Shown: positions 2,143-50,531 of the stretch, piece after piece | Numbering within the stretch: the stretch's first letter is position 1 | How the letters are laid out: each line of letters opens with the position of its first letter | Source of the DNA: Minisyncoccia bacterium | GTDB lineage: Bacteria > Patescibacteriota > Minisyncoccia > 2-02-FULL-40-12 > IGHO2-01-FULL-4-A | DNA length: 64,000 nucleotides | Assembly (NCBI GenBank): GCA_050015375.1 | Contig: JBEKBN010000003.1 | Location: 16,127 to 80,126, forward strand | Reading direction: 5' to 3' | Notes under the pieces: model-generated | Told to the model about the DNA's origin: nothing | What the model saw: the letters and a program-made list of their open reading frames with translations, nothing else | Database searches by the model: none | Position numbers and translations under genes: made by a program

Positions 2143-2201
2143 TGTTGGTTTAATTAGCTAATTTTGTTGTCCAGAAATTTCTGGGAATACTCCAGCCAAT
2201 C

Positions 2202-2408
2202 TCATTCCGAGGGTTTTTCCTGTCTTTCTGTTGAGGGTTCCAATGCGTTTTTAATCGGGCCCGCTTCTTGCTCGCCGTAAACGATTTTGTAAAGATTGAC
2301 TAGGTTATTCGCACGAAAAGACGCCTCGGCATCAGTAAGCTGGATTTTGAACCTTTTTTGGTATAGATTCTTAAACTCTTCGATTGCTTCTTTGGGCAAC
2401 AGGCTCAT
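2202..2408 (-). CDS. small hypothetical protein
   Basis: 68-aa ORF with no recognisable motif. Confidence 0.3.
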   Translation of the reverse strand: MSLLPKEAIEEFKNLYQKRFKIQLTDAEASFRANNLVNLYKIVYGEQEAGPIKNALEPSTERQEKPSE

Positions 2409-2522
2409 ACTTCAATCGTATCTAGGCCGAGCCGTTGCCTGACATAATCTCAAGGTATTTTTAGGAACAAAAAAACGGCTATTTTAGCCGTTTTCAATTT
2501 GCGTTATTAACAGTAGCTTAGG

Positions 2523-3752: not shown

Positions 3753-3848
3753 TTTCTATACCCTAGCAATTTGTGGCTAATTTCTCAATGTTGTCCTTGA
3801 GAACTTGTAGTTGCTTTATTTTTGGTCAAATTTAGGTTATTTTATATT

Positions 3849-3986
3849 TGTGCACCCACAATTATAGATTTCCCTTGTTTTGGTCTCGGAGGGCTGTCCC
3901 TTCTGTCCGATTTGCGGACGGAAACGGGGCAGTTAACCTCCACAAATCGGAACCCTTCGGGCTAACGAGGAACAGTGGGTGCACAG
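3849..3986 (+). ncRNA. structured leader / candidate ncRNA upstream of the mod gene
   Basis: An 11-bp perfect inverted repeat tgtgcacccac (3849-3859) / gtgggtgcaca (3976-3986) encloses a 9-bp IR tccgatttg/caaatcgga and a C(UUCG)G-type hairpin cccttcggg (3953-3961). Three GTGCAC hexamers occur at 3850, 3979 and 4039, the last overlapping the mod start region. Confidence 0.35.
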
Positions 3987-4046
3987 GTTAGCTGTCCCTT
4001 TTTTGATATAAGCGAAAGGACAACTTAAAAAGCATAGCGTGCACCT

Positions 4047-5888: not shown

Positions 5889-5890
5889 AT

Positions 5891-7879
5891 ATGTTTAATT
5901 CATTTCTACCATACGAAAAACAATTCCGAACTTGGATTGATAACAAGTTCCAACACGAGAAAATCAAACCCGAAACTAGGGAGTTCATTTTGCATATCTT
6001 GAATCCGGAACGAGAAAGAAAGCTTTGGCCAAATCAACAGGAAGGAATTTTGCGGGCAATTTTTGCGTATGAGGTTCTCGGTAAGAAAACCCTGTTGCTC
6101 AACATAGTTACCGGTGGCGGTAAAACAGCAATCATTGCCGGTGTCATTGCTTGGCTTCGGATGGCTCATCAGATAAGACATTTCATCATCCTTAACCCGA
6201 ATGTAATCGTCAGGGACAGATTAGAGCAGGACTTTAGAAAGGCAAAGATTTTCAGAGATTTTAAGTTTTTCCCAGCCGTTTATTCAAATCTATTAGACGA
6301 CTTGGATTTGCATATTCTTGGCGACAAACAAGCTCCGCAAGGCATGCTTGAATCTGGTGTCGTTTTGGGTAACATACAACAGCTCTATAGCAGAGGCGGT
6401 AAGGTTAGCCGTAACCTTGCCTACATAATGAATTTTCTTGGCGACTTGGCCGTTTTCAATGATGAGGCTCACAATACGCCGGCTCCGGAATATACGAATA
6501 TCTTGATGCAGTTGGCAAAGAAATCAAAGTTTCGTCTTGATACAACAGCAACGCCGGATAGAGCTGACAATCAAAACCCAGATTCAGAAATGATTTATGA
6601 ATATGGCATCCAAGATGCCCTGGCTGATGACCTCGTTAAATCTGTTGTTGTATATCAGCCGGACATAAGACGAGTTGAGCTTACTTATACAGATGTGGAT
6701 ACTGGCAAGAAAGCGAAGGTTGAAGAGATTGACTGGGATGAAATAGATAAAAGAGGTATCAGCGCAACTCAATGGGTTACAGATGATAAGCCGTTAAAAC
6801 AACAAATCAAAATAGCCATCCAAAGGCTGGACGAGCAAAAAGAGAGGGCCAAAGGACGATATAAACCGGTTCTGTTTGTTGTGGCTGTTTGTATCAGGGA
6901 TGCCAAAAATGTTGTGAGTGTCATGGAAAAGAAATTTGGCCTAAAAACCCTCTTGGTTACAGAGGAATCCGAAGAAGCACAGAGGAGAGAGGCGGCTCAC
7001 ATTGGCCATCTGGATAGCCCCTACGATGCTGTGGTAAGCGTTTTAATGCTCCGTGAGGGTTGGGATGTGCCTCAAGTATCGGTTATCATATTATTGCGTA
7101 AATTCTCATCACGGGTCTACGGCCAACAGGTAATTGGCAGAGGTTTACGGAAGGTCATCAGAGAGGGCGATGAGCGGGAGATATTGGCGGTTGTTGACCA
7201 TCCAAAACTTGAACACGGCTGGTTGTGGAAATTGGTTGGAGCGAGAATTAAAAAGGATGTATCGGTTGATGATAAATTTGATGTTGAAGAAGATTTGCCG
7301 GAGAGACAACAGAAACAAGAGCTGATTGACCCAGATAAACTGATTGAGGTTCCGGAACTTGAAGGCGAAATTGAACCGAATTTTGATGATTTGTTGCAAG
7401 AGATAAAAGAAGTTCCGGTTACTGAAGATTGGCCAAAGATACTCGATGCTGTAGTTTATCCGAGAAACAAGGTTGAGATTACTGGTCTGAAATTACGAGG
7501 CATCAGAAAAATGGATTTGGGTGGTAAGCAATATGTTGAATACGAACCAACGGAAGATGAAGAAGAAAAAACAATCGAAACACAAGAACAGGAAACAACA
7601 TATTCACTCGATGACTTGCGGGAAGAACTGAAGGAAGAAGTTTTAGAACTTGGCTCTGAATTGCTTTTCATGATGGGTTTCGGTTCAATTTACAAAGAGC
7701 TACTTTACAACACGATAATGAATCACATTGATAAAAGATTATTTAATGGAAAGACACTCGGTTTAGCAGAACAAAAAGATTTGGAATTTGCTTTGTATAA
7801 ATTACCGGAAATAAGACGGGTATTTATGAGGCCTGGTTTAGTGCCGAGTATCATCCGTTATCCCAATGCAACAGAGTGA
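5891..7879 (+). CDS. res: Type III restriction enzyme Res subunit, SF2 helicase part
   Basis: Walker A VTGGGKTAIIAG, DEAH box FNDEAHN and motif VI QQVIGRGLR. Starts 3 nt after the mod stop. Lacks the C-terminal nuclease domain (see next ORF). Confidence 0.75.
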   Translation: MFNSFLPYEKQFRTWIDNKFQHEKIKPETREFILHILNPERERKLWPNQQEGILRAIFAYEVLGKKTLLLNIVTGGGKTAIIAGVIAWLRMAHQIRHFIILNPNVIVRDRLEQDFRKAKIFRDFKFFPAVYSNLLDDLDLHILGDKQAPQGMLESGVVLGNIQQLYSRGGKVSRNLAYIMNFLGDLAVFNDEAHNTPAPEYTNILMQLAKKSKFRLDTTATPDRADNQNPDSEMIYEYGIQDALADDLVKSVVVYQPDIRRVELTYTDVDTGKKAKVEEIDWDEIDKRGISATQWVTDDKPLKQQIKIAIQRLDEQKERAKGRYKPVLFVVAVCIRDAKNVVSVMEKKFGLKTLLVTEESEEAQRREAAHIGHLDSPYDAVVSVLMLREGWDVPQVSVIILLRKFSSRVYGQQVIGRGLRKVIREGDEREILAVVDHPKLEHGWLWKLVGARIKKDVSVDDKFDVEEDLPERQQKQELIDPDKLIEVPELEGEIEPNFDDLLQEIKEVPVTEDWPKILDAVVYPRNKVEITGLKLRGIRKMDLGGKQYVEYEPTEDEEEKTIETQEQETTYSLDDLREELKEEVLELGSELLFMMGFGSIYKELLYNTIMNHIDKRLFNGKTLGLAEQKDLEFALYKLPEIRRVFMRPGLVPSIIRYPNATE

Positions 7880-8213
7880 ACACGGCGTATTTGAACACCC
7901 AACAAAAAGTCCTTTCTCGCTGGAAAAATATGATTCTCGCTGGGAGCGGGAATATATGGATGAGCTGGAGTTATATTCTGATGTCGCTAAATGGACTAAA
8001 AGCCACAACATCAGGATTCCTTATGTGGACGATGCGGGATATAGGAAATTCTTTGAACCGGATTTCTTGGTTGAAAAAATTGACGGCACAAAGGAAATTC
8101 ATGAGATTAAAGGTAGCCATTTAATGAACCGAGAAACCGAATTGAAAGTGAATGCGGCCAAGCTGTTTTGCGAGGCAAGAAATATGAAATTTCGCCTGAT
8201 TACAAAGCAATGA
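7866..8213 (+). CDS. PD-(D/E)xK nuclease domain ORF, probable detached or frameshifted C-terminal endonuclease part of Res
   Basis: 115-aa ORF overlapping the res end by 14 nt in another frame. It contains VDDAG...EPDFLVEKIDGTKEIHEIKG (PD...EIK). Confidence 0.5.
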   Translation: MQQSEHGVFEHPTKSPFSLEKYDSRWEREYMDELELYSDVAKWTKSHNIRIPYVDDAGYRKFFEPDFLVEKIDGTKEIHEIKGSHLMNRETELKVNAAKLFCEARNMKFRLITKQ

Positions 8214-9341: not shown

Positions 9342-9671
9342 ATGCCCACTAAATCAGCATCCATACAAGCTATTGACTTAACGAGAGCCGTTTTTGAGTC
9401 TATACACGGTAATATCGGGTTACTTAAGTTTAATGTTGAAGAACTTACCCCCAAGAACGGAAAGAACGGAGAGGATTCAAAAAAATGGGAAATAGTTTGT
9501 AGTTTTTTAGAAACCCTTGGAAGTTCATCACAATCTCGCTATAGGGTATTTGTCGATTTGAATGATAGAACCGTAACTATCAAGAAACTAAGCAGTGGGC
9601 AGGGAGAGGCTGGATTAAATGAGCCGGAGAAAAAGTTTGTTGTTACAGAAGAAAAAGAGGAGAAAAAATAA
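9342..9671 (+). CDS. hypothetical protein (possible antitoxin-like partner)
   Basis: 109-aa ORF whose stop overlaps the start of the next gene (ATGA-type overlap at 9671). Confidence 0.35.
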   Translation: MPTKSASIQAIDLTRAVFESIHGNIGLLKFNVEELTPKNGKNGEDSKKWEIVCSFLETLGSSSQSRYRVFVDLNDRTVTIKKLSSGQGEAGLNEPEKKFVVTEEKEEKK

Positions 9672-10225
9672 TGTTATTAGAAATCGGAAATATTACCAAT
9701 TACGATAGAGATATAATCCCATTTACAAAAAATGGGATTGTTATTGATACAAGCATAATAAAAATTCTCATAGACGGTATCATAGCCACAAGGATAAGCA
9801 AAAAGAATCTAAACGAACTACCAGAATACAAAAATCTATTAGATTTCCTTGCCCTAATCAAGATGAACAATAAATGGGAAAAACTTTTTGTTACCCCACA
9901 TATTCTATCGGAGGTATGTAGACATTTTCGAGATGACTATTCGGACTATAAAAATTATAGAAACATTGTAGGAGAGGTTTTCCCCTTATTAAAAATCATG
10001 GAAGAACACATGGTAAGCAAGGAAAACATCATTGGCCATATTGATTATGATAATCCCGTGATTGAGATAGGCGACATATCTATATTTGCAGTCGCACAGG
10101 ATTTCATTAGTGAAAAAAAGAAAACTGCCATATTGGCCAAGGATAAAAGGATAAATGATAAGTATAAGGACGACTCCTATATTATGGTTATGGACTATCA
10201 AGCAATAATGCTAAGCCTCTTATAG
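9671..10225 (+). CDS. PIN-domain-like protein (putative VapC-like nuclease)
   Basis: N-terminal GIVIDTSIIKILIDG resembles the PIN hhhDTShh motif. Translationally coupled to the upstream small ORF. Confidence 0.35.
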   Translation: MLLEIGNITNYDRDIIPFTKNGIVIDTSIIKILIDGIIATRISKKNLNELPEYKNLLDFLALIKMNNKWEKLFVTPHILSEVCRHFRDDYSDYKNYRNIVGEVFPLLKIMEEHMVSKENIIGHIDYDNPVIEIGDISIFAVAQDFISEKKKTAILAKDKRINDKYKDDSYIMVMDYQAIMLSLL

Positions 10226-10572
10226 TCTTACCAGTTCTTGACGATTCCAAACGGCGAAGAGCCAGTTATGGCCATTAAAGCGGTTCTGACTTGGTTCAAC
10301 GCCCAGAGCTTTGGGGTTTTGTTCAAAACGACCGTGCCCTGTCACGGTTGGATGTTCAAAAAATACCCGAAAAAGGGTGTTTTTTGATTTTCAAGATCCA
10401 GCCGACTTAGTTCGAGTCCGTTTCCCATGAGGATCGAGATAAGTCCGCTGGTCTCCTGAAATTGATACCAAGTTGGTTACTTGTTTATAAGTTTTTAAAC
10501 AAACAAATACACCTATGATATAATAAAAACGGTCGTTTCTATTAAAACAATAACTAAGTAGTTATATTTATT

Positions 10573-11214
10573 ATGAATTATTTAGTATTTTTCTTCTTTT
10601 TGCATAATGTTTTAGCCACGTTCGTTTTAGGTATGAAGTTCGTAAAGCGCACTAGTGGTGTTTTTAAGAACTTCGGTATTGCTTTATTGTTAGATGCTGT
10701 TGCTTTCCTGGTGTGGTTATTCGGAATAATGCAACAAGGCAGTTTATTGATAAGTGTCACAATAGGTGCAGTGGTTTTTCTTGTTTCCCTGGTCTTTATG
10801 TTACGTGCCGCTTTCGAAGATACGCAAGCAAGCACTCGTCGGTTGGCAACGATAATAGGCGCCATTGCGGTAGTCGGTATATTCTATGTTGGACACATTC
10901 AGCCAGAAACAGCATATATTTCCCAAGAGGGCTTCTTTTTCTTTAACTTAGGGCCGTTGATGCAGATGCTATATATTTTTGGATTGGCGTTTACTGCTCT
11001 CCCGGCAATTGATTTATTGACTGATAAATTTAAATCATCTTATGCCGTACTCGTCCGCTATGGTTTTATCGCTGAAGTGGTCACCGGCATTATGCTTATT
11101 ACAAGCAAAAACACCCAGGTCCTCTATATTTCCGGGTGGATCTCTGGACTTATGTATCTTCTTCTCTGGACAACACTTCTCTTCAGTCGAAAAGCTTGGG
11201 CAAGCACTAGCTAA
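10573..11214 (+). CDS. multi-pass membrane protein
   Basis: 213-aa ORF with about 6 hydrophobic helices. Confidence 0.5.
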   Translation: MNYLVFFFFLHNVLATFVLGMKFVKRTSGVFKNFGIALLLDAVAFLVWLFGIMQQGSLLISVTIGAVVFLVSLVFMLRAAFEDTQASTRRLATIIGAIAVVGIFYVGHIQPETAYISQEGFFFFNLGPLMQMLYIFGLAFTALPAIDLLTDKFKSSYAVLVRYGFIAEVVTGIMLITSKNTQVLYISGWISGLMYLLLWTTLLFSRKAWASTS

Positions 11215-11302
11215 CCCCGTCATAATAAAGTAGGATTTATTTAGAACTTTAGTGTTAAAGTGTGTTTAGATTTAAAGAAAACTAGAGGGTAAAATAAGTC
11301 CA

Positions 11303-12412
11303 ATGGATAAACAAATTATAAATTATAGTAACTGTTGGGAGGATTCGGATGTATTGACTAAAGCGCTTAATATAAATTCTGGCGATGACATCTTGTCTAT
11401 TACTTCAGGGGGGTGCAATACTCTTGCACTTTTATTACAAAATCCAAGAAGCATTGTCGCGGTGGATTTTAATTCAGCGCAAAATTACCTTTTAGAATTA
11501 AAGGTTGCATCTTTTCGCATTCTTTCATACGACGAATGTCTTGCTTTTTTTGGAATAACGAAATCAGATGAGCGTTTACAAATATTTGACCGCTTGAAGA
11601 ATGGAATTACTCACGAAGCGCGACAGTGGTGGATGAAAAACACGGATTTGATAAATAAAGGGATTATTAATGTTGGGAAATTTGAACACTACCTCTCAAT
11701 ATTTAGAACAAAAATTATGCCGCTTATTCATTCAAAAAAGACTATCCGAAATTTATTTTTGTCCGATTCTCTAGCTAATCAAAAGAAATTTTATGATGAG
11801 ATATGGAATACATGGTTATGGAGGTTCGCATTTAGAATATTTTTTAGTCGCATGATAATGGATCGATTTGGCCGAAGAAAAGGTTCGTTTGCCCATACTC
11901 AAATTGATAATGTAGCAAACCATTATTTTGAACGAGCGAGGCATGGTCTTATAGAGATATCAATCCAGAATAATTATTTAATAAATTATATTTTTACCGG
12001 CACATTTAATAGAAACAATATGCCCCCGTATTTGCAGAGGAATAATTATAATACTTTGAAGACCCGTCTTGGTAGATTAAAAATTGTAACCGCGGGTATT
12101 AATGAATTTCTTCAAACATCCAAAGATAATGCTTTTTCAAAGTTCAATTTATCTGATATTTTTGAAACCATGAATCAAGATGAGGCAGATTCTGTATTTG
12201 AAGAAATCGTCAGAGTAGGCAGGAATAATAGTATTTTTGCATTTTGGAATAACTTGGTAGATCGCAAGCCCCCGGATACCTTAAAGGCCTCCGTATTTGA
12301 AAATCGTGAAATTTCTAATAAATTATTCAGCGTTGACAGAGGATTTATGTACAGTGATTTTTTAGTATATTTTATAAATAAAGACATTGAAAAACCTCAA
12401 TATGCCTTATAA
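11303..12412 (+). CDS. BtaA-like (DUF3419) S-adenosylmethionine-dependent 3-amino-3-carboxypropyl transferase family protein
   Basis: N-terminal YSNCWEDSDVL...GDDILSITSGGCNTLALLL...VAVDFNSAQNYLLELK matches the characteristic DUF3419/BtaA N-terminal block (CWED, SxxSGGCN, AVDxNxxQ). Confidence 0.55.
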   Translation: MDKQIINYSNCWEDSDVLTKALNINSGDDILSITSGGCNTLALLLQNPRSIVAVDFNSAQNYLLELKVASFRILSYDECLAFFGITKSDERLQIFDRLKNGITHEARQWWMKNTDLINKGIINVGKFEHYLSIFRTKIMPLIHSKKTIRNLFLSDSLANQKKFYDEIWNTWLWRFAFRIFFSRMIMDRFGRRKGSFAHTQIDNVANHYFERARHGLIEISIQNNYLINYIFTGTFNRNNMPPYLQRNNYNTLKTRLGRLKIVTAGINEFLQTSKDNAFSKFNLSDIFETMNQDEADSVFEEIVRVGRNNSIFAFWNNLVDRKPPDTLKASVFENREISNKLFSVDRGFMYSDFLVYFINKDIEKPQYAL

Positions 12413-13562
12413 AAATTTGTCCGATTTAACAAAGGGTATTTACCTTTTACCATGGAATAGAAGCGACAATCCTAACGGATGGGTTGAGCCCTCCACTTTT
12501 TGCCAGTTAAAATGCCCGGGATGTTATCGTGCTTTGAATAAGGACGGTGCCGTTCGTGTCCATGAGGATTTGTCAGACATGAAAAAACAAATTGATATGT
12601 TCGTAAAAACTCGTAATGTTCAGACAATATCAATTTCGGGCGGAGAACCGTTGCTATATCCCAAACTCAAAGAACTTTTATCGTACATAAAATTGAAAGG
12701 ATTAAAGACTAAAATCTTTACTAACGGAATTGCTTTAGACGAGAAGAATCTCCGGGAACTAAAAAATCACGGGGCTAATGAATTTATAATTCACATCGAC
12801 AAATCTCAAGGCAGACAAGGTTATCATAATGAAAACGAACTTAATAAATTAAGAAGATATTATTGTGATTTATTCAGAAAAATCGGCGGTGTTAATTTAA
12901 GCTTTATCATGCCGATTTCGAAAGAAACATTGTCAGATATAAAGCCGGTATTATCTTTTTGCAGAGAAAATGCTGATATTGTTGGCCTAATTGTTTTTAC
13001 ATTGTATAGCGATGTTGTCTGGAATGAAAGTGAAAAGAAGAACATTAACACAGACCTCGCCATTTTGGATATTGTAAATCAGATACAGGAGAATTTTAAA
13101 TTCAAACCATGTGCATATCTTGGAAGCACAGAAAACTTGGCTTATCCATCTTGGCTTTTTTCAATGTCGATTGGTTTAAAGGACAAAATACTTGGTTTTT
13201 TTGACGGCAGAGTATACAAAGCAATTCAAGAAAAACATCATTCTCAACACGGTACGTATCTATATACCAAAATTAATAAACCAATTCTTGCCCGGCAATT
13301 GATAAAACTTCTTGGTTTCAGCTCAATTCGCCGCATTCTGGCTAATTATTCAAAAAATGTAATTATAAATCCTAAAAAAAGAGAAAAGTTATATATGCAA
13401 ACCTTGCTAATACTTCGCGGCCCAAAATTTGCCTCTGACGGCAGTAGGAATCTCTGTGCCGGCTGTCCCGATGCAATGTACTACAATGGTAAACTGGTTC
13501 CTTCATGTATTTTAGAAGAAGTTAAGCAGGGTGAACATAAAAATACAGAATTTACACTATGA
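12387..13562 (+). CDS. radical SAM enzyme (possibly with a C-terminal SPASM/twitch-like Cys cluster)
   Basis: CQLKCPGC (CX3CX2C) and SISGGEPLLYP. C-terminal CAGCPDAMYYNGKLVPSC. Overlaps the upstream gene by 26 nt. Confidence 0.8.
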   Translation: MKNLNMPYKNLSDLTKGIYLLPWNRSDNPNGWVEPSTFCQLKCPGCYRALNKDGAVRVHEDLSDMKKQIDMFVKTRNVQTISISGGEPLLYPKLKELLSYIKLKGLKTKIFTNGIALDEKNLRELKNHGANEFIIHIDKSQGRQGYHNENELNKLRRYYCDLFRKIGGVNLSFIMPISKETLSDIKPVLSFCRENADIVGLIVFTLYSDVVWNESEKKNINTDLAILDIVNQIQENFKFKPCAYLGSTENLAYPSWLFSMSIGLKDKILGFFDGRVYKAIQEKHHSQHGTYLYTKINKPILARQLIKLLGFSSIRRILANYSKNVIINPKKREKLYMQTLLILRGPKFASDGSRNLCAGCPDAMYYNGKLVPSCILEEVKQGEHKNTEFTL

Positions 13563-14443
13563 TTCTGGAAAACTATTCCTTAGTTAAGCGAATAATAAAA
13601 TATAGTAATGAGCGTTTTCCAATAATACTATGTTTAACCACAGCGTCGGTAGTTTTTAGTTCATTTGTTATTTCAACAGGAAAACTAGTACCGGAAATAA
13701 ATACAAATTTTGTCGTAGGATTTGTAACTGGATTGCTATATTTATTTCACATTAGGTTATTCGATGAATTAAAGGATTTTGAGCATGACTCTAAATACTA
13801 TCCGAAAAGACCTGTAATAAGAGGGCTGCTTTCATTAAATGAAATAAAGAACATCGCAATTGTTGCAATATTATTTGAATTTATCGCAAATCTGTTTGTT
13901 CCGACTAAAGTTTTCCTTTTTTTTCTAATCCTATTTGCCTATTCCGCTGTATGCAGATATGAGTTTTTTATCAGTGATTTGTTGAGACGTAACTTTTTCG
14001 TCTACAATATACTTCATTATTTCCAGATGTCATTGGTGGTCGTTTATCTTTATATTCTCGCCGGGGTGGATCTGCGTCATCTGGATAAATTGTTAATTCT
14101 ACATTTTATTTTTACTAATCTGACTTTTACTCTCATAGAATGGGCGCGAAAAATGAGGATTATTTCAGAAGAAAATGAGAGCAAGGACACATATTCAGCC
14201 CGCTTGGGTATAAGAGGAGTTTCTTTAGTATTTCTTATAATGGCGGCATCGACTTTTATTTGCTTCGGTTTTATCAAGGCAATGGTTGGATCATTCGGAC
14301 ATTCTATGTTTCTTTCTATATTGGGATTCATTCTCGTAATAACAGCAACACTTCTTTATGCTATAAAAAGGACAAAACTTTCAACAAATGCGCTTCAAAT
14401 ATCCTCTATTATATTTTTTGTGCTACTTCATTTTTCGGTTTAA
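13559..14443 (+). CDS. UbiA-family prenyltransferase-like membrane protein
   Basis: FDELKDFEHD (Asp-rich motif) and YPKRPVIRG (UbiA R-P-x-x-x-G motif). About 8 TM helices. 4-nt overlap with the upstream gene. Confidence 0.5.
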   Translation: MILENYSLVKRIIKYSNERFPIILCLTTASVVFSSFVISTGKLVPEINTNFVVGFVTGLLYLFHIRLFDELKDFEHDSKYYPKRPVIRGLLSLNEIKNIAIVAILFEFIANLFVPTKVFLFFLILFAYSAVCRYEFFISDLLRRNFFVYNILHYFQMSLVVVYLYILAGVDLRHLDKLLILHFIFTNLTFTLIEWARKMRIISEENESKDTYSARLGIRGVSLVFLIMAASTFICFGFIKAMVGSFGHSMFLSILGFILVITATLLYAIKRTKLSTNALQISSIIFFVLLHFSV

Positions 14444-14452
14444 ATAATAATC

Positions 14453-16888
14453 ATGCTATACACGCTTTCCAATATTATCGATAAGGACCTGGTTAAATTG
14501 GGTGGCAAAGGACTTAATCTGTACCTTCTTACAAAAGAGGGGCTACCGATTCCAGAATGGTTCATAATCCCGGCGGATGCAGATCTAAAAGAAATAGAAC
14601 CTCAAATCATGGCTCACTACAACCGATTAGCAAAAGATGGAGGTGTCGCGGTTAGATCATCTGCCAATGTGGAAGATGCGAAAGATATGTCTTTCGCAGG
14701 CCAATTCAGTAGTTACCTTAACATAAATACCTTTGAAGATTTGCACGAAGCGATTCAAAAAGTAAGAGAATCGGTAAATTCAAAAGTTGTTTCGAAATAT
14801 TTAAAAAATAATAATCTTCAGAAGGAGTCGATTAAAATGTCAGTTATTGTTCAAAAAATGATTTGTAGCGATATTTCCGGCGTTATGTTTACTGCCAATC
14901 CTATAACTGCCAATACCGACGAACTTATAATAAACTCTGCAACTGGTGTAGATTCTGTTGTGAAAGGAATAAAAGCAAATGTTCATATTTTTAATAAACG
15001 CAAGGGTTTAATTTTGGATACTGGATCTAAAATTCAAAACGGACTTAATAATGGACTTCTTGATAAACTGTTTAAAATTGGTATAAAAATTGAAAATATA
15101 TTTAACTCCCCGCAAGATATTGAATGGGCGATCAAAGACAAAGAAATATTTATTCTACAAAGCAGACCCATAACAAAGCTGAACAAATTTGAGGAACAGC
15201 TTTGGGATAATTCTAATATTTCCGAAAGTTATAGCGGGGTTACGATGCCCTTAACGATATCTTTTGCCAGGCGAATTTATTCGACCGTATACCGGGAAGT
15301 TGCCTTAACTTCAGGTGTTTCTAGACAGGTTATTGAGGATAACAAGCAACTTTTTGATAATATGCTTGGTTTTTTTAGAGGCAGATTTTTTTATAACATG
15401 GATAATTGGTATCGTTTGCTTTTATTTTTCCCAGCATTCGGTTTTACCAAAGGTTCCATGGAACAGATGATGAGCGTAAAAGAATTTCATAACTTTGATA
15501 AAACGATAAACAATTCATGGTTTTTTAATGTTAGATATATTCTTAGGGCAACTTACAGGTTTTTTAATTTTAACCATGAAATTAAGTCTTTTAAAGAAAT
15601 ATTCCATCAAACTTACGACCCTTTAAAAACCCTTGACCTATCGACCCTAACGGAGTTGGAATTATTGGCTTTATATAATAAAGTCGAGAGCAAAATTCTT
15701 CGACCATGGCACACGGCAATAGATAATGATTTTCTGGCAATGATCTTTTATGGACTTCTCCGGAAATTAACCGATCGTTGGGGACTTAATAAAATAAACC
15801 CGTCAATTTATAACGATCTTCTTTCGGGTATGAATAATGTCGCAAGTGCGGAACAAACCGAACAATTGTTAAAAATTACATCTCTCATCCGGGATAATAA
15901 AAAAGTACTAGAACTCTTTAATCAGGCAAACAGTGGGGTTTTGTATAATAAATATAAGCAAAAAGAATTTAATCCAGAGCTTCTAGGAGCAATCGATATT
16001 TATTTAGACAGATTTGGCGACCGTTTTGCTAATGAACTTAAATTGGAAGAACCAAATATAAAAGAGTCACCGGAAAAACTATTTAGTTTGATTAGGGTGT
16101 ATTTATCTATATTGCCCGAGAAGTTTGATGAGAAAATCAAAGGAAGAAATTCAATAAAATTACAGGCTATCGAATATCTTAAATCCAATTTAAACCCAAT
16201 AAAAAAGTTATTAATATTTTATGTTCTAAAACAATCTGAACGGTTCTTGAAAAATCGAGAACAGATGAGGTTAATGAGAGCAAAAATTTTCGGGTTTATC
16301 AGAAATATTTTCAAGGAAATTGGAACTAAATTTGAGATGAATAATATCATTGATAAATCAGATGATATATTTTTTCTGGAAATTGACGAAATTGCTAGAT
16401 TTATTGAAGGTTCTTCGTGCTGCTCAAACCTTAAAGATTTAATAAAGATTAGAGAAAAAGAATTTGATATTTATAAGCGCGAAAACATGGATGACAGATT
16501 TTATACTCACGGTGTCCCGTATTTAGATATTCCTTTATCAAAACCTGATTATGAGGTGGGGCAACAACCTAGAGTACTAAAGGGATTGCCAAGCTCTCCC
16601 GGAAAAGCTTGGGGTAAGGTTCAACTCATGGAAGAATTCAGCTATGAAATTGACGGGGGCGCAAGAATATTGATAACAAAGCATACAGATCCCGGCTGGA
16701 CGCCTATATTCAGTCGTTTCAGTGGAATTATCGTCGAAAATGGCGGGCAGCTTTCGCATGCCTCCATCGTATCACGAGAACTCGGCATTCCTTGCATTGT
16801 CGGAATTAAAGACGTGACGAGGATTATTAAAAATGGCGCCATGATAACCATGGATGGATCAAGAGGAGAATTGATAATTGGAAAATAA
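14453..16888 (+). CDS. PEP-utilizing enzyme family phosphotransferase (PEP synthase / rifampin-phosphotransferase-like three-domain architecture)
   Basis: N-terminal ATP-grasp KLGGKGLNLYLLTKEGLPIPEWFII. C-terminal phosphohistidine mobile domain GGQLSHASIVSRELGIPCIVG. 811 aa. Confidence 0.75.
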   Translation: MLYTLSNIIDKDLVKLGGKGLNLYLLTKEGLPIPEWFIIPADADLKEIEPQIMAHYNRLAKDGGVAVRSSANVEDAKDMSFAGQFSSYLNINTFEDLHEAIQKVRESVNSKVVSKYLKNNNLQKESIKMSVIVQKMICSDISGVMFTANPITANTDELIINSATGVDSVVKGIKANVHIFNKRKGLILDTGSKIQNGLNNGLLDKLFKIGIKIENIFNSPQDIEWAIKDKEIFILQSRPITKLNKFEEQLWDNSNISESYSGVTMPLTISFARRIYSTVYREVALTSGVSRQVIEDNKQLFDNMLGFFRGRFFYNMDNWYRLLLFFPAFGFTKGSMEQMMSVKEFHNFDKTINNSWFFNVRYILRATYRFFNFNHEIKSFKEIFHQTYDPLKTLDLSTLTELELLALYNKVESKILRPWHTAIDNDFLAMIFYGLLRKLTDRWGLNKINPSIYNDLLSGMNNVASAEQTEQLLKITSLIRDNKKVLELFNQANSGVLYNKYKQKEFNPELLGAIDIYLDRFGDRFANELKLEEPNIKESPEKLFSLIRVYLSILPEKFDEKIKGRNSIKLQAIEYLKSNLNPIKKLLIFYVLKQSERFLKNREQMRLMRAKIFGFIRNIFKEIGTKFEMNNIIDKSDDIFFLEIDEIARFIEGSSCCSNLKDLIKIREKEFDIYKRENMDDRFYTHGVPYLDIPLSKPDYEVGQQPRVLKGLPSSPGKAWGKVQLMEEFSYEIDGGARILITKHTDPGWTPIFSRFSGIIVENGGQLSHASIVSRELGIPCIVGIKDVTRIIKNGAMITMDGSRGELIIGK

Positions 16889-16890
16889 AC

Positions 16891-17904
16891 ATGAAAATTC
16901 AGAAATATAATTTTGATGTGAAACAGGTTAACTCCTTTTTGAAATTAATTGATATATTATACTTGAAAAACCAGAATACAAATCTATACAAAAATTTCAT
17001 TTTGGATTCTCTTAAACCTAAAAATCATTTTTATAAATTTGCTGATATCCAGAATTTCTTTGCTTTGGAACACGATTCTCCCCAGGGTCATATCTCCGCA
17101 ATGATTGATAACAGACTTCCTGGAGTCGGGCTCGTTGGTTTTTTTGAATCCTCAAACGCCGAAATTGCTGATAAACTGATAGATTTATCTATTGAATATT
17201 TTCGGGAAAAAGGTGTCACAACTATAAGAGGACCAATTGATTTATCAATTTGGCACAGATATAGATTTGCAAATCCGGCAGATACAGGAAATATATTTTT
17301 ATTCGAACCCTTTAATAAACCCAAATACCCGGAATATTTCTCAAATTATGGATTTAAAATTGCCGAAAAATATTTTTCAGGCTTACGCACTGATTTTAAT
17401 GACATTATCAATTATACGAAAGACGGATACGATAAAGCTTGTCAGAAAGGATTTAAAATAAGAACCATTAAACTCAATGAGTTTAATGAAGAATTAAAAA
17501 TAATTCACAGGCTATCCCTAGAAATATTTAAGGAAAGTTGGTCATTTGTTCCAATATCATTTGAAGAATTTAGTTCAATTTATAAAGGCATTGAGAAAAA
17601 AATTAACCCGCGTTTTTGCGAGTTTATTTGTGACGGAAAAAAGGAAATAGGCTTTTGTTTTAGTATTCCGGATTTTACGAGCCGTGAAAAAAAGTTGATT
17701 ATTAAAACGATAGGCGTACTGCCTGAATACCAGGGTCAAAATTTAGGCTTGGCCTTGATTTACGATCAGCATGTTAAAGCCAAAGCGGACAATTTTGAAA
17801 CAATAGTGTATGCACTTATGAAATATGGCAACAGGGCCTCACAGATTAATCCTTACGGAGCAAAAATATTTCGGGATTACGAGATATACGAATTAGAAAT
17901 ATGA
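16891..17904 (+). CDS. GNAT-fold acetyltransferase-like protein
   Basis: C-terminal VLPEYQGQNLGLALI (Q/RxxGxG/A acetyl-CoA motif). Starts 3 nt after the upstream stop. Confidence 0.4.
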   Translation: MKIQKYNFDVKQVNSFLKLIDILYLKNQNTNLYKNFILDSLKPKNHFYKFADIQNFFALEHDSPQGHISAMIDNRLPGVGLVGFFESSNAEIADKLIDLSIEYFREKGVTTIRGPIDLSIWHRYRFANPADTGNIFLFEPFNKPKYPEYFSNYGFKIAEKYFSGLRTDFNDIINYTKDGYDKACQKGFKIRTIKLNEFNEELKIIHRLSLEIFKESWSFVPISFEEFSSIYKGIEKKINPRFCEFICDGKKEIGFCFSIPDFTSREKKLIIKTIGVLPEYQGQNLGLALIYDQHVKAKADNFETIVYALMKYGNRASQINPYGAKIFRDYEIYELEI

Positions 17905-18530
17905 ATACAATCTTAACATCTTTGGTTTTTCTAGCATCTTTCGTTTTAGTCGAAGCAATTCAGCGAAAAACCAAATTAGAAAACGAATATTCCAGAAAAA
18001 TAGTTCATATAACCTCTGCGATTATCGTTTTTTTAATGCCTTATTATTTGAATCGCCTCGACATTATCGGGTTATCATTATTTTTCATCATTTTTTTATT
18101 AGTAACCAAGAAGTTAGGTTTTTTACAAAGCATTCACAGAGTCGGGCGGCACAGTCTGGGAGAAATATATTTTCCGCTTGGAGTTGGTTTAACAGCTTTT
18201 TTCTTTCTGCCGAATAACATTATTTCATTTCAGTTCGGCTTTTTAATTCTGGGGTTTTCAGATGCCATCGGGGGTCTAGTAGGATACTCACTCGGTAATC
18301 GTAAAACAATATTGCTTGGAAACAAAAGCATTGAGGGAACTGCCACCTTTTTCCTGACAACATTTCTGATATTTATATTTTTCATTTACTCAAAAACGAG
18401 CACAAATCTAATCTCTGCCTTTCCTGTTGTCTTGTTGATCACCCTTACAGAACTTATATTTACTGGCGGTTTAGATAATCTCTTCTTGCCAATTTTATCA
18501 GCAGTCCTTATTAAAGTGCTATTGAGTTGA
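17901..18530 (+). CDS. CTP_transf_1 (CdsA/CarS/dolichol-phytol kinase) superfamily membrane protein
   Basis: GYSLGNRKTILLGNKSIEGTATFF resembles the KxSxEGTxA motif of polyprenol/phytol kinases. About 6 TM helices. 4-nt overlap with the upstream gene. Confidence 0.4.
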   Translation: MNTILTSLVFLASFVLVEAIQRKTKLENEYSRKIVHITSAIIVFLMPYYLNRLDIIGLSLFFIIFLLVTKKLGFLQSIHRVGRHSLGEIYFPLGVGLTAFFFLPNNIISFQFGFLILGFSDAIGGLVGYSLGNRKTILLGNKSIEGTATFFLTTFLIFIFFIYSKTSTNLISAFPVVLLITLTELIFTGGLDNLFLPILSAVLIKVLLS

Positions 18531-20009
18531 TCGGGTAACTATGAACTTTTTCAAATATATCTTCCTGTCCTTTATAAATATCTCATCTTTCAGGCAAGAC
18601 AGCAGCTCTCTCTTCTCCTCTCGCGATCCTTCCTTGAGGATATACTTAGCATAGTTTTTTATATTCACTTCATTGATATTCGCTTCATTCTGATACTTCT
18701 GTCCAAGGACATTACCTATAAATTGCCGGTGTCGTGCCAGTTCTCTTTCAAGCTTCTCTTTCGCTCCGATCTTATCTATCGAAATTTCATCAATTAATTC
18801 CAGGAGCTGGCCGACCAGCTCCTCTTCACGTATGTATTTCTGTCCGCAATATTTGTCGTGGTATTTAGTACAGTGATAATAAATATATTTGGTTATACCT
18901 CCGTTAGCCAGCTTTTTATACTTCTCCGTTGCCGTGATGCCTGATCCGCAAGCTCCGCATTTGAATATTCTTACAAAATTAAATTCTTTTGTTCCCGGTC
19001 TTAACTTCGGAGTGGCTACTATTGCTGTCTGAACCTTGTTGAACAGATCCTGATCTATAATTGGCTCATGGGAACCGTTATAGAATATTCCGCTTCCTTC
19101 AGGATATTCGAACTTACCATAATAATAGTGGCGCTTAAGAGTGCAGTAAATCATACTGAGGGTTATTCTCTTTCCGGTTCGTGTCCTAAAGCTTGTTTCA
19201 TTATTAAGCCAGGCAAGTAAATCCCGTCCGCTGTATCCCTGATATGCGACCTTTTCGAACATCTGTTTTATAAACGGCGCTCTTATCGGGTCCAAAATAA
19301 CTATTTTCTGTCCCTTTTTTGCTGTTGTATCGTGTATATAGCCCAATGGAGGAACTCCCGGCCGCCAGCCCATTTCGCATTTGGTTCGCAATCCGCGTTT
19401 CACATTCTCGCCTTTGTGGTCGTTCTCCAGTTTCGCTTGTGAACACAAGATCATAAGAAGGAACTTCTCGTTCGGTGAATTAGTGAATCGCTGACCATGC
19501 GTCCGAATTTCTTTCAGGACCCCAGCATCCATAAGGTCAACAACTTTACCCAGATCTCCGGCATTTCTTGATATACGGCTCGGATCCCAGGCAATGATGC
19601 CATCGAACTTTCCGTTTCCGATATCTTTTAATAATTCATTGAAGACCGGCCGTAAGCCAGAATCCTTTGCTGAATGGCTTTCCTGTTTAATCTCAGAGAC
19701 GGTCAAACCATCCCGATTTGCCATCTGGATCATCTCCTTTATCTGAGACTCAATAGAGAGCGCCTGACGCTCGTCCTGCTCGCTTGATTTGCGGGCATAG
19801 AGGCAATACCTCAAAGACCCCTTCAAAGTCTTGCGAAAGATGGTTAGAGACCTGCTTGGGGAGCTTACAAAACAAAACAACCCAGTTGGGTTGTTTTGTT
19901 TTGTAAGATTCCGTCGGGGAGAAAGCCGACTTCTCGGCTTTCGTTCGGACTCGAAGGGCGCAAACGATATTTTTTCAGCAGAAAAAATCGTGCGCCCGTG
20001 GTCAGACAA
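18519..20009 (-). CDS. large serine recombinase (true start probably near 19821, not 20009)
   Basis: Catalytic LRYCLYARKSSEQDERQ, resolvase core, and a large C-terminal recombinase domain with a Zn-ribbon-like CGACGSG...CTKYHDKYC. The ORF-track start is a TTG at 20009, and the ORF reads through a 44-bp palindrome. A TTG giving MKGSLRYCLY lies just downstream of the palindrome. Confidence 0.85.
   Translation of the reverse strand: MSDHGRTIFSAEKISFAPFESERKPRSRLSPRRNLTKQNNPTGLFCFVSSPSRSLTIFRKTLKGSLRYCLYARKSSEQDERQALSIESQIKEMIQMANRDGLTVSEIKQESHSAKDSGLRPVFNELLKDIGNGKFDGIIAWDPSRISRNAGDLGKVVDLMDAGVLKEIRTHGQRFTNSPNEKFLLMILCSQAKLENDHKGENVKRGLRTKCEMGWRPGVPPLGYIHDTTAKKGQKIVILDPIRAPFIKQMFEKVAYQGYSGRDLLAWLNNETSFRTRTGKRITLSMIYCTLKRHYYYGKFEYPEGSGIFYNGSHEPIIDQDLFNKVQTAIVATPKLRPGTKEFNFVRIFKCGACGSGITATEKYKKLANGGITKYIYYHCTKYHDKYCGQKYIREEELVGQLLELIDEISIDKIGAKEKLERELARHRQFIGNVLGQKYQNEANINEVNIKNYAKYILKEGSREEKRELLSCLKDEIFIKDRKIYLKKFIVTRSTQ
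19864..19907. repeat. 44-bp element: perfect 21-bp inverted repeats flanking a central non-palindromic GT (candidate serine-recombinase crossover/att or res site)
   Basis: cttacaaaacaaaacaaccca GT tgggttgttttgttttgtaag. Located immediately 5' of the recombinase catalytic domain coding region. Confidence 0.6.
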
Positions 20010-20035
20010 AACCAGCTGACCGAGCGGGTTTTAGC

Positions 20036-20060
20036 CGCGACCGAGTCCTACCCGTGGAGC
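20036..20060. repeat. 25-bp direct repeat, copy 1 (gcgaccgagtcctacccgtggagc)
   Basis: Recurs at 21085-21109 with one mismatch (T/C). Confidence 0.7.
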
Positions 20061-20169
20061 TAGATAGCAAACAATATAGCGTTTTTTCATCGATTCACTG
20101 CATTGATTTTGATAAAAAAGCCCACTTTGTGTGGGCATGCAGATTGTCAGCTATATTGTTTTTCTATAT

Positions 20170-20958
20170 TTATTTCTTCAAAAAATTATATTCCAGAAAG
20201 ACCTGAATAATCGGCAGCTGCTGATTAGAAGGATATTGTAAACCAACAATGTTTGCATCGGCATAGTTTCGCCTAAAAGCTAAACCACCACTAAAGCCCA
20301 GCATTCCCCGACCTTCTTTTGTGTCGCAATCGCTTACGCAGATCTTGAAACCACCAAGCAAAGTCATCGGCACACGATAGTAGGCGACTTGTTTTTTTAA
20401 TAAGGTCTCATCGCCACCATACTCGCTATAACCTTGCCTAAGAGAAACATTCATCCAGAATGGAAATGATGTGTAGGCCTCACTTGTAAGCCAGAACCGG
20501 CCCCCTAAACGAACCGATGTTTCACCAAATGCACCGAGACGTACGGGCGAGCTTTTTAATTCGAAATAAGTAACCGTGCTCCCGATACAATAACACCCAT
20601 ATTGAACTTCGTTTGAATGGTCGCCGTTAAAAATTATCATCCCTCCGGCAGCTAGTTCAAGGCGATTTCCAAAATTCAGAGTCGGTCCAAACTCTCCGGG
20701 TATCATAATCATTCCCGAATGCAACTTAATCCGATCAATCGCATATATGCTTAAATACCCCGATGGGTATTGGACAGTTCTAAGAACTTCGGGAAAGTTA
20801 CTATATGAAGTGATCCTCCAAGGGTTAGGCGCGTATCCACCTTTAAACTTAAAGCCCAGGATAACGCCATGCGGTTTATCATTTTGTTGGGCATTTTGCG
20901 CCCAAGCAACTGGCGCCAATAGACAAAAAAGTAAAACAGCCACGGCACGTTTTAGCAT
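20170..20958 (-). CDS. secreted protein with N-terminal signal peptide (beta-rich, OMP-like composition)
   Basis: MLKRAVAVLLFCLLAPVAWAQNAQQ signal peptide. Gly/aromatic-rich alternating pattern. Sits between the two 25-bp direct repeats. Confidence 0.5.
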   Translation of the reverse strand: MLKRAVAVLLFCLLAPVAWAQNAQQNDKPHGVILGFKFKGGYAPNPWRITSYSNFPEVLRTVQYPSGYLSIYAIDRIKLHSGMIMIPGEFGPTLNFGNRLELAAGGMIIFNGDHSNEVQYGCYCIGSTVTYFELKSSPVRLGAFGETSVRLGGRFWLTSEAYTSFPFWMNVSLRQGYSEYGGDETLLKKQVAYYRVPMTLLGGFKICVSDCDTKEGRGMLGFSGGLAFRRNYADANIVGLQYPSNQQLPIIQVFLEYNFLKK

Positions 20959-21084
20959 TTTCCTACCTCTCTTCCTTTGTTAAAGATAAGCCAATACTAC
21001 CCTTACTTTTTCGGGTAGTCAAGGCGTTCATTACCCACACCTTAAAACTTGAAAATCCATGGAAATAAGTGCAAGGTGAGAGTC

Positions 21085-21109
21085 GCGACCGAGTCCTACC
21101 CGCGGAGCC
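21085..21109. repeat. 25-bp direct repeat, copy 2
   Basis: cgcgaccgagtcctacccgcggagc. Confidence 0.7.
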
Positions 21110-21163
21110 CTAATTTGACAAATACCACAGTGATGTGGTAGTATTGTTGTAAAAGGAGGGGGT

Positions 21164-25245: not shown

Positions 25246-25322
25246 TGCTTTGTCCGGGAAAGAACATCCGACAAAAAACTTCCGCCTCGCGGAAGTTTTT
25301 TGTCGGACCCATCGGCAAGAAA

Positions 25323-26960: not shown

Positions 26961-27816
26961 TTTGAAATTCGTCGAAACGGGAAAGGGGAGGATATATTAT
27001 AAATTTATTGCGGGCGCGATTTCGCGCTCGCGCGAAATCGCGCCCGCGGCCGAGCCAATTTTCGCGAAACCGACTCTCATTTTTCTCCATGGCCTTTCGG
27101 CTAATCATACGACCTGGACGGCGGTTGCGGAACAATTCAACCGCCTGGGCTACGATTGTTTATTGCCCGATATGCGCGGACACGGATACTCTGACAAGAC
27201 AAAATCCCGCTCGCTCTACCATCTGCCGGTTTTCGCCGATGACCTTGACCTGATTTTTAAAAAAGAAAACCTTTCGGAAGTTGTTTTGATCGGCTATTCT
27301 TTCGGCGGTTCAGTAGCGCTCCGGTACGCTGTTGATCATCCCGGATCGGTCAAAAATTTAGTCCTCATCAGCACTAATTTCGTCAGCCCGCTGGATTATC
27401 ACGGTCTTGGTTTTTTGAACTTTTTGGCCTATACTTTTGTGAACGGTTTTGCTTGGTCAATGTTTTGGCAAGGCCGCCGAAATTACTATTATTACGACCA
27501 TGCCACCGCCAAGGGTTATTGGCACAGCACATTCACAGGTTGGACGGCAATGCCCGTTTGCGTCAATCATTGGCTCTTAGCCGAATTGTTAAAAGTCGAT
27601 TTTTCCGCCGATCTGGGAAAAATCAAATGTCCGGTCTTGATCGTCCGCGGCGGCAACGACCCGTTCCTGACCAAAAAAGAAGCCGTGAAAATGGCGGAGG
27701 GCATTTCCAGTTCGAAGCTCGTCCAGCTTGATGACTCCAGCCACTTCCTGGCTTCAAAAAATCAAGAGCAAATTTTCCAAGTTATCAGCGGATATCTTAA
27801 CGAACAAAAAAAATGA
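26947..27816 (+). CDS. alpha/beta hydrolase
   Basis: LIFLHGLSANHTTW, GYSFGG (GxSxG) and a C-terminal His region. The track start at 26881 is probably an upstream extension, so MNSNDLKF at 26947 was used. Confidence 0.65.
   Translation: MNSNDLKFVETGKGRIYYKFIAGAISRSREIAPAAEPIFAKPTLIFLHGLSANHTTWTAVAEQFNRLGYDCLLPDMRGHGYSDKTKSRSLYHLPVFADDLDLIFKKENLSEVVLIGYSFGGSVALRYAVDHPGSVKNLVLISTNFVSPLDYHGLGFLNFLAYTFVNGFAWSMFWQGRRNYYYYDHATAKGYWHSTFTGWTAMPVCVNHWLLAELLKVDFSADLGKIKCPVLIVRGGNDPFLTKKEAVKMAEGISSSKLVQLDDSSHFLASKNQEQIFQVISGYLNEQKK
27010..27047. repeat. 38-nt GC-rich perfect palindrome inside the hydrolase CDS
   Basis: gcgggcgcgatttcgcgc tc gcgcgaaatcgcgcccgc, in frame, encoding AISRSREIAPA. Confidence 0.8.

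Positions 27817-48855: not shown

Positions 48856-50531
<1,676 letters not shown>

Follow-up and report, generated by a model that had tools for sequence, protein, structure and literature searches.

The 44-bp perfect palindrome at positions 19864-19907 of the window (the whole stretch of 64,000 nucleotides of Minisyncoccia DNA that was analysed) is, on its sequence, perhaps best read as a hairpin of the bidirectional Rho-independent terminator type, or an insulator hairpin, situated just inside the right-hand end of a putative island, and not as a crossover site of the neighbouring serine recombinase. We put the probability of this reading at about 50%. The palindrome lies between a + strand operon of lipid type (stop codon at 18530) and the - strand gene of a 262-aa secreted-type protein (20170-20958, stop codon at 20170), 1334 nt past the stop codon of the former and 263 nt past that of the latter, and the - strand gene of large serine recombinase (LSR) 2 (18519-19826) is located in between.

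The first-pass annotation had described a 44-bp site with 21-bp perfect inverted repeats around a GT, and this description is accurate. The arm at 19864-19884 (CTTACAAAACAAAACAACCCA) is the exact reverse complement of the arm at 19887-19907 (21 of 21 positions); the GT spacer at 19885-19886 separates them, and with the flanks included the complementarity extends over 26 nt at 92% (19859-19912). By chance, 64 kb should contain about 1e-8 perfect inverted repeats of 21 nt; ten shuffled versions of the window contained no perfect palindrome with arms of at least 12 nt, and a search with the 21-nt half-site, allowing up to 3 mismatches, returned the two arms as the sole matches (0.02 expected by chance). 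The palindrome is not an assembly artefact, for the same stretch was found base for base in contigs of four other assemblies (JGI 3300038424, ENA ERZ27250144, SRR7028199 and SRR12951266). As a single-stranded nucleic acid it folds into a 20-bp stem with a 4-nt loop (-32 to -35 kcal/mol). Read as RNA, either strand consists of an A-tract, an 8-bp core hairpin (AACAACCC/GGGUUGUU, with a 4-nt loop; -10.3 kcal/mol for the core alone) and a U-rich tract (UUGUUUUGU). Symmetry at 21 of 21 positions is what base-pairing selects for; the half-sites of serine-integrase attP and attB tolerate degeneracy.

On both strands the palindrome thus shows the layout of an intrinsic terminator, namely a stem of at least 5 bp and a loop of 3-8 nt followed by a U-rich tract, and the automated terminator scan missed it only because the whole 20-bp stem was counted before T residues were searched for. 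Known bidirectional Rho-independent terminators likewise have a GC-containing stem-loop with an A-tract on one side and a T-tract on the other, and transcription of either strand gives a hairpin and then a U-run. Like them the palindrome is intergenic, and its core energy and loop size match those of the other terminators of this genome (core energies of -8.1 to -12.9 kcal/mol in the window). The same design recurs at 25267-25307 (16 nt past a stop codon), at 43344-43385 (6 nt past a stop codon) and at 56277-56310 (38 nt past a tRNA-Trp gene). It was also observed in other CPR loci, where 522 kb contained 18 perfect palindromes with arms of at least 12 nt, 17 of them intergenic and most with A/T-tract arms and a GC-richer core; six were found 7-41 nt past a stop codon and one 9 nt past the stop codon of an LSR gene (locus L049). 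Long perfect palindromes are, in other words, the normal look of terminators in CPR genomes, and one that stands beside a recombinase gene need not be the site of that recombinase.

Some features fit a terminator less well. In comparison with known bidirectional terminators the 20-bp stem is unusually long and perfect; its core has a lower GC content than the other examples, and a G breaks the T-tract. The 155-nt block beside the palindrome is, in addition, significantly structured (see below), which the terminator reading leaves unexplained. Moreover, the palindrome does not directly follow an annotated gene, and the 262-aa gene upstream already has its own canonical intrinsic terminator at 20136-20112 on the - strand (GCCCACACAAAGTGGGC then T6, from the terminator scan and folding). 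Termination at the palindrome, as we infer it, could act in both directions. On the - strand the palindrome and the adjoining hairpins would keep transcription that comes from the side of the 262-aa gene out of recombinase 2. In the other direction, on the + strand, the palindrome would end transcripts that leave the convergent operon and run antisense through recombinase 2, as it is the first + strand terminator-like structure after the operon; no other was found in the interval that starts with the operon stop at 18530.

The first-pass annotation had taken exact repeats around a central dinucleotide to be the signature of a serine-recombinase crossover site, either that of a resolvase/invertase-type system or a not yet integrated attP. 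The palindrome would then be an unrecombined symmetric attP-like or res/hix-type site, cut at the central GT. Its size, dyad symmetry and non-palindromic central dinucleotide do fit the general architecture of LSR att sites such as attP and attB of Bxb1 and phiC31 (about 40-50 bp with inverted half-sites), the Bxb1 sites have a GT centre as well, and the palindrome lies 37-49 nt from the probable start of the recombinase gene, whose product has Resolvase, Recombinase and Zn-ribbon domains; an att-type repeat is no more than about 130 nt away. We nevertheless consider this interpretation very improbable. The same 40-50 bp inverted geometry is found in unrelated palindromes of the window, whose centres range from 0 to 6 nt, so that a 2-nt centre is not special, and exact arms around a tiny asymmetric centre also occur in terminator palindromes unrelated to recombinases. 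The half-sites of Bxb1 and phiC31 are imperfect. For the palindrome, no partner or recombinant junction was found in the sequences searched, and it is not conserved in the recombinase family.

No partner or hybrid half-site (an attL/attR-type junction) was found in the window at up to 6 mismatches or in a further 9 kb to its left (73 kb of contig in total), nor was either found among GTDB representative genomes, JGI metagenome contigs and IMG/VR. The host genome is not detectably present in these collections, which did not return the organism's own copy of the palindrome, so the partner searches reach the 73-kb contig and not the rest of the host genome. Six metagenome and four viral half-site matches were single A/C-rich chance matches with unrelated flanks and without the other arm. 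We also considered a repeated mobile element of the MITE or REP type and rejected it, the half-site being unique in the window and not found in the collections.

Other observations point the same way. Only one arrangement was seen across all assemblies, and an integrated element should hold no intact attP. No such palindrome occurs upstream of any related recombinase gene, and a position at the element boundary that is consistent across homologous systems was not observed: the tRNA genes that neighbour members of the recombinase 2 family flank the 3' end of the recombinase gene, and so does the junction beside recombinase 1. A site of dyad symmetry shortly before a serine recombinase gene recalls Tn3/gamma-delta res and Hin/Gin hix/gix, but those systems have small recombinases (about 190 aa, C-terminal HTH), two sites in cis, accessory subsites or an enhancer and imperfect 12-bp half-sites. 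Here a single site stands beside a protein of 431-435 aa, which is a large serine recombinase and neither a resolvase nor an invertase. Integration is, moreover, accounted for by tRNA-derived direct repeats without the palindrome. The expectation of a recombination junction near recombinase 2 can be kept in another sense, since a copy of the 3' end of tRNA-Asn (the core of DR1, see below) lies 126 nt beyond the palindrome.

Recombinase 2 has the composition of a large serine recombinase, with an N-terminal catalytic domain carrying the Ser nucleophile, a recombinase domain and a zinc ribbon (PF00239 Resolvase, PF07508 Recombinase and PF13408 Zn_ribbon_recom, all above threshold). It contains the motif YCLYARKSSEQ, matches structures of SPbeta SprA/YokA (SprA at 5e-13) and is 43% identical to recombinase 1. 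The three available gene calls disagree on its start: the NCBI model has 496 aa from TTG 20009 (MGD0976897.1), the JGI model 431 aa from TTG 19814, and the ENA/Logan model 401 aa, without the catalytic Ser. As had been remarked before, the longest ORF (from TTG 20009) reads through the palindrome, which makes up its codons 35-49. Most of 113 homologues have an extension of about 25 aa ahead of the RKS(S/T) motif, and none exceeds 63 aa; the 496-aa model would need 72 aa. As this is longer than in every homologue measured, the NCBI model is probably over-extended. The start is probably TTG 19826 or TTG 19814, giving the length of 431-435 aa mentioned above, in agreement with the earlier proposal of a TTG near 19821. 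The two in-frame candidates, 19826-19824 and 19814-19812, are supported by the homologue N-termini and leave the palindrome 37 and 49 nt upstream, respectively. The shorter model is also favoured by the comparison with recombinase 1, which starts 14 residues ahead of the motif. Shine-Dalgarno sequences precede only 5 of 45 genes of this genome and were uninformative for the choice.

We also found that the contig carries copies of the 3' end of a tRNA gene, which are likely, by their sequence and placement, to be the attachment sites of the island. Nineteen nucleotides of the tRNA-Asn 3' end (CGAGTCCTACCCGYGGAGC) recur at 20042-20060 and, in the same orientation, at 21090-21108. The same core is found in an intact tRNA-Asn(GTT) gene about 0.8 kb to the left of the window, an attL-type junction within which the ORF of recombinase 1 has its stop codon (a 538-aa LSR whose 5' part occupies 1-790 on the - strand). 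ARAGORN places this tRNA on the - strand at 12957-13029 of locus L083, and the ORF of recombinase 1 ends at 12969 of that locus. When aligned with the tRNA-Asn 3' end, the two copies appear as attR-type junctions on the + strand: DR1 (20033-20060) has its core (CGAGTCCTACCCGTGGAGC) after a non-tRNA arm (AGCCGCGAC), and DR2 (21081-21108) has its core (CGAGTCCTACCCGCGGAGC) after the same left arm (AGTCGCGAC). They are identical at 26 of 28 positions, with 0 such matches expected by chance. DR2 is located between divergent promoter-like sites (21115-21144 on the + strand and 21022-20994 on the - strand), and DR1 and DR2 bracket the 262-aa gene in a 1-kb segment without a recombinase.

This arrangement suggests an island of about 21 kb integrated at the tRNA-Asn(GTT) gene. 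Its left junction would be the tRNA itself, towards which recombinase 1 converges with its stop codon within the tRNA 3' end, and its right junctions would be the two partial copies, DR1 and DR2, placing the palindrome about 130 nt within the right-hand end. The empty attB is predicted to read tRNA-Asn ...CGAGTCCTACCCGCGGAGC joined with CCTAATTTGACAAATACC, and the circular attP ...TTTTAGCCGCGAC followed by the core and AATCTTGGACTTTTAG. The tRNA gene is intact at one end, its 3' end recurs as a direct repeat at the other, and an integrase gene beside the tRNA converges on it; these are the features by which tRNA-integrated islands are recognised, and two successive attR-type copies around a 1-kb integrase-less segment are known from islands that grow by tandem accretion. 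Unlike the typical tRNA-targeting islands, which use tyrosine integrases, this one carries large serine recombinases only, and the ORF of one of them ends inside the tRNA. Any assignment of the junctions to one recombinase would be putative.

The boundaries of the island are drawn from the repeats alone, as a related genome in which the site is empty was not found. All contigs that carry the flanking genes have one and the same arrangement, and an operon relative at 55% identity (locus L079) is without the recombinase and too distant for a comparison of sites. A comparison by way of the flanking 262-aa, 209-aa and 92-aa proteins was abandoned, their relatives being either the same genome or distant and non-syntenic; the 262-aa protein has only 3 distant homologues, all non-syntenic. 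Two further ways of delimiting the element were rejected as well. The low-GC block at 8.2-18.5 kb has too gradual a GC shift to define ends, and a search for an inverted-repeat partner of the 3' end of recombinase 2 gave no match above shuffles.

The placement next to tRNA genes was observed across the recombinase family. A tRNA gene on the opposite strand lies downstream of the recombinase in 11 of 58 loci (Asn-GTT in five), no more than about 200 nt from the end of the recombinase in eight, and no tRNA gene was found upstream in any of the 58. In the three closest relatives a tRNA gene with an intron follows about 65 nt downstream. These data point to a very large CPR family of LSRs with genes beside tRNA 3' ends, a habit usually tied to tyrosine integrases, and place the likely attachment sites of the island at the tRNA-Asn repeats; if confirmed, this would be of interest for the mining of serine integrases and their att sites. 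In the 500 nt upstream of about 50 related CPR LSR genes no perfect hairpin of at least 10 bp was found except for one 10-bp stem (locus L021).

The region between the palindrome and the 262-aa gene contains a structured block (19908-20062, identified by folding) with hairpins at 19921-19942, 19956-19997 and about 20001-20034. The closing helices are formed by DR1 and an inverted, T-loop-like fragment on the - strand (19947-19955, TTCGAGTCC), which is identical over 9 nt to the T-loop region of tRNA-Asn and pairs with the tRNA-derived part of DR1. Even without the palindrome this 155-nt block has folding z-scores of -5.3 (- strand) and -6.1 (+ strand), and the palindrome stands 37-49 nt ahead of the start candidates, where the terminator of a leader would be. 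One could therefore imagine a cis-regulatory leader or small RNA in which a DR1-proximal transcript folds and then ends or conditionally reads through at the palindrome, attenuating recombinase 2. Relatives often have a stem-loop around the start codon (e.g. GCGTCAT pairing with ATGACGC in locus L029), in line with such a mechanism. We regard it as unlikely, however. No promoter-like site was found in 19600-20400, and Rfam returned no family at gathering or permissive thresholds but only sub-threshold miRNA-hairpin look-alikes. The pairing of the tRNA-derived repeat with the inverted T-loop fragment explains part of the structure, and the block was found in this genome alone.

Recombinase 2 lacks the conserved upstream element of its family. 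A degenerate copy that we considered at about 20030-20075 gave no nhmmer match, and the sequence there is the tRNA-Asn-derived repeat. Recombinase 2 has lost this element together with the ATG-initiated N-terminal extension common to its relatives, and is now left with TTG start candidates only, downstream of the palindrome. Alternatively, the palindrome could be a functionless by-product of lineage-specific palindrome-making (for instance template switching that duplicated a segment in inverted orientation, or the insertion of a small selfish palindrome), arising during a remodelling of the 5' end of recombinase 2. The window is indeed rich in perfect palindromes with arms of at least 12 nt (11; the other CPR loci have 2.2 per 64 kb and the shuffles none), and the longest ORF remains open across the palindrome. 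Several palindromes were observed as in-frame insertions of 29-69 nt within conserved housekeeping genes: in both Tgt and IscS an insertion of 10 aa coincides exactly with a 29-nt palindrome of the CCCCACAC type, and a DUF6390 gene contains a 69-nt example. We nonetheless find a by-product rather unlikely. The in-gene palindromes are GC-rich and of other sequence types, whereas the one studied here belongs to the AT-rich terminator type that is widespread in CPR, and it has no sequence relationship to the other palindromes of the window. A suspected homology of its arm to the N-terminal codons of relatives (ATACAACSAAAACAAGGG) was dropped, local alignment scores being no better than those of shuffles. 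Its kinship with the in-gene insertions is uncertain, and we are doubtful of the broader proposal that a lineage-specific process, a miniature analogue of the Rickettsia palindromic elements, writes perfect palindromes into this Minisyncoccia genome, with the 44-bp palindrome, which would have remodelled the 5' end of recombinase 2, as one product. As a separate observation on the window, the small number of ORFs listed at 56.4-64 kb reflects one giant ORF that runs off its end.

The palindrome of 44 bp at 19864-19907 is real and non-random. It sits 5' of the minus-strand gene of recombinase 2, and its description in the first-pass annotation as a pair of perfect 21-bp inverted repeats around a GT core was borne out: the arm at 19864-19884 (CTTACAAAACAAAACAACCCA) is the exact reverse complement of the one at 19887-19907, with GT between them. 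Searching the window for the half-site with at most 3 mismatches returned the two arms alone (0.02 matches expected), and widening the search to 6 mismatches yielded only additional matches at chance level. The stretch is identical in contigs of four other assemblies and thus no assembly artefact. Perfect palindromes with arms of at least 12 nt occur 11 times in the window and not once in shuffled copies of it.

Judged by design and position, the palindrome is most likely an ordinary terminator-type hairpin, though an unusually long and perfect one. Three window palindromes with the same A-tract, GC-core and T-tract design lie in terminator positions, namely at 25267-25307 (16 nt past a stop codon), 43344-43385 (6 nt past a stop codon) and 56277-56310 (38 nt past tRNA-Trp). 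In 522 kb of other CPR (Patescibacteria) loci there are 18 perfect palindromes with arms of at least 12 nt, 17 of them intergenic and most of the same design; six lie 7-41 nt past a stop codon, including one 9 nt past the stop of a large serine recombinase (LSR). The core hairpin (-10.3 kcal/mol, 4-nt loop) is followed by UUGUUUUGU on both strands, and the cores of other terminators in the window range from -8.1 to -12.9 kcal/mol. We put the probability that the element acts as a bidirectional terminator or insulator just inside the right end of an island at about 0.5. On the minus strand, the palindrome and the hairpins at 19921-19942 and 19956-19997 would block transcription from the side of the direct repeat DR1 ahead of recombinase 2. 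As the first plus-strand terminator-like structure past the end of the convergent operon (18530), it would also end antisense transcripts through recombinase 2.

Counting against a terminator are the canonical terminator that the neighbouring 262-aa gene already has (20136-20112), the fact that the palindrome is not immediately past a stop codon, and the significant structure of the adjoining 155-nt block (z of -5.3 and -6.1), which has no match in Rfam. This structure arises in part where the tRNA-derived repeat pairs with an inverted TTCGAGTCC fragment (19947-19955). A structured block and a site ahead of a start codon would also fit a leader, an attenuator or a small RNA, but there is no promoter-like site and no conservation to compare, and we consider this quite unlikely.

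It is also unlikely that the palindrome is the neutral product of a palindrome-making process. Palindromic insertions that keep the frame do exist in this genome, of 10 aa each in Tgt and in IscS and a further one in a DUF6390 gene, but these in-gene palindromes are GC-rich, unlike the element studied here. GC-rich perfect palindromes that keep the reading frame were observed within conserved genes at 50091-50119, 40778-40806, 36245-36313, 27010-27047, 52636-52671 and 48799-48832. Two elements of the form CCCCACACYCA...TGRGTGTGGGG are the sites of the Tgt and IscS insertions (compared with solved homologues); the DUF6390 gene contains a 69-nt relative with 20-nt arms and exceeds its profile in length by about 21 aa, and the remaining palindromes lie in an alpha/beta hydrolase, RF1 and a Gmad2-domain ORF. 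They recall Rickettsia palindromic elements, although at a far smaller size.

The first-pass annotation had interpreted the palindrome as an att/res-like crossover site of a serine recombinase. Its geometry fits, but all comparative tests came out against this reading, which now appears very improbable. No second site sharing the half-sites, whether partner or hybrid, was found in the window, in the 9 kb to its left that an identical ENA contig covers, among GTDB genomes (one per species), in IMG/VR or in JGI metagenome contigs (six matches, all single A/C-rich chance ones with unrelated flanks); these last three collections did not return the organism's own copy of the palindrome, which limits these negatives. 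Half-sites of serine-integrase proteins are degenerate; perfect 21/21 complementarity is the outcome expected of selection for pairing. The 2-nt centre is unremarkable, other palindromes in the window having centres of 0-6 nt.

The recombinase family is huge and CPR-specific. Among the 59 loci fetched, the roughly 50 relatives with a locatable catalytic motif have no perfect hairpin of at least 10 bp within 500 nt upstream, except for a 10-bp stem in one (L021). What the relatives have in common is a non-palindromic element consisting of a single or directly repeated GTTACCAAC, then GGTCTGGACT, 14 nt, TGCGTCATT and, 8-50 nt further, the ATG. This element, strongly conserved and non-coding, lies ~60-150 nt upstream of the catalytic motif (L011-L069, L002, L003), with a spacing similar to that of an ECF-sigma-type promoter; nhmmer did not find it at recombinase 2. 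Often GCGTCAT forms a stem with the start-codon region.

Recombinase 2 has Resolvase, Recombinase and Zn_ribbon_recom domains and is an LSR, given its match to SPbeta SprA structures. Gene callers differ on its start: the NCBI model (496 aa, TTG 20009) runs through the palindrome, the JGI model (431 aa) starts at TTG 19814, and the ENA/Logan model, 401 aa from an ATG, does not include the catalytic serine. In 120 homologues typically ~25 and at most 63 residues precede the RKS(S/T) motif, compared with 72 in the NCBI model; recombinase 1, at the left window edge and 43% identical to recombinase 2, starts 14 residues ahead of it. The earlier proposal that the longest-ORF start is wrong and that translation begins downstream of the palindrome is reasonable on these N-termini, and the correction is probably right. 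There is no in-frame ATG anywhere upstream of the catalytic serine. TTG 19826 and TTG 19814 are indistinguishable, because only 5/45 checked genes in the window have a Shine-Dalgarno-like sequence, the others showing A/T-rich upstream regions, which makes RBS-based start prediction unreliable in this genome.

A tRNA gene follows the recombinase on the opposite strand in 11/58 loci (L013, L015, L028, L044, L046, L048, L049, L063, L065, L068, L069) and precedes it in none; Asn-GTT accounts for five of these tRNAs, and in eight the distance to the recombinase end is at most ~200 nt. Further tRNA-adjacent cases are L002 (1806-2050) and recombinase 1 itself. The three closest relatives have a group I intron-bearing tRNA ~65 nt past the recombinase stop codon. 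On the contig that extends the window leftwards (L083), recombinase 1 proves to be 538 aa long, and its stop codon falls within the 3' end of a complete tRNA-Asn(GTT) gene encoded opposite it (12957-13029). Targeting of tRNA 3' ends is unusual for LSRs. The tRNA-adjacent CPR serine recombinases, the conserved upstream element and the in-gene palindromes merit separate study.

A 28-nt direct repeat at 20033-20060 (DR1) and 21081-21108 (DR2) flanks the 262-aa gene (26/28 identical, 0 expected by chance). Its last 19 nt (CGAGTCCTACCCGYGGAGC) equal the 3' end of the tRNA-Asn beside recombinase 1, in the same orientation, and both copies share the 9-nt non-tRNA arm AGYCGCGAC. A tRNA 3' end repeated in this way typically marks an island that has integrated there, and these repeats are likely the attachment sites. 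The implied island would run from the left junction (tRNA-Asn and recombinase 1) through a type III restriction-modification system, tRNA-Phe and tRNA-Arg, a lipid-type operon, and recombinase 2 with the hairpins to DR1, a 1-kb segment without recombinase and DR2, with host DNA beyond. The palindrome lies 126 nt inward of DR1. The island contains no tyrosine integrase, and no empty site was found for comparison.

DR2 sits precisely in the gap between two divergently oriented sigma-70-like promoter matches, TTGACA-18-TAGTAT (21115-21144, 92-aa gene) and TTGACT-17-TAGTAT (21022-20994, 262-aa gene), and with this placement it might also be, or overlap, an operator. At its recombinase 1 end (window 1-8213 and L083 11353-13029) the island holds a type III methylase (4047-5888), a Res helicase (5891-7879) and a small gene with a TnsA-like N-terminal domain (7866-8213); in one relative (L003) a methylase and a large gene also adjoin the recombinase. 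The operon at 9671-18530 is low in GC (31-36%) and kept in three distant relatives without the recombinase (L078, L079, L082). Its products are DUF3419, a radical SAM protein, UbiA and PEP-utilising/Rph-like, GNAT-like and dolichol-kinase-like proteins, which probably make up a pathway for modifying lipids or isoprenoids; the operon's final gene ends in a 12-nt overlap with the 3' end of recombinase 2. Near the right window end few ORFs are listed because a single plus-strand ORF of more than 2275 codons occupies ~57200-64000 and continues past it.
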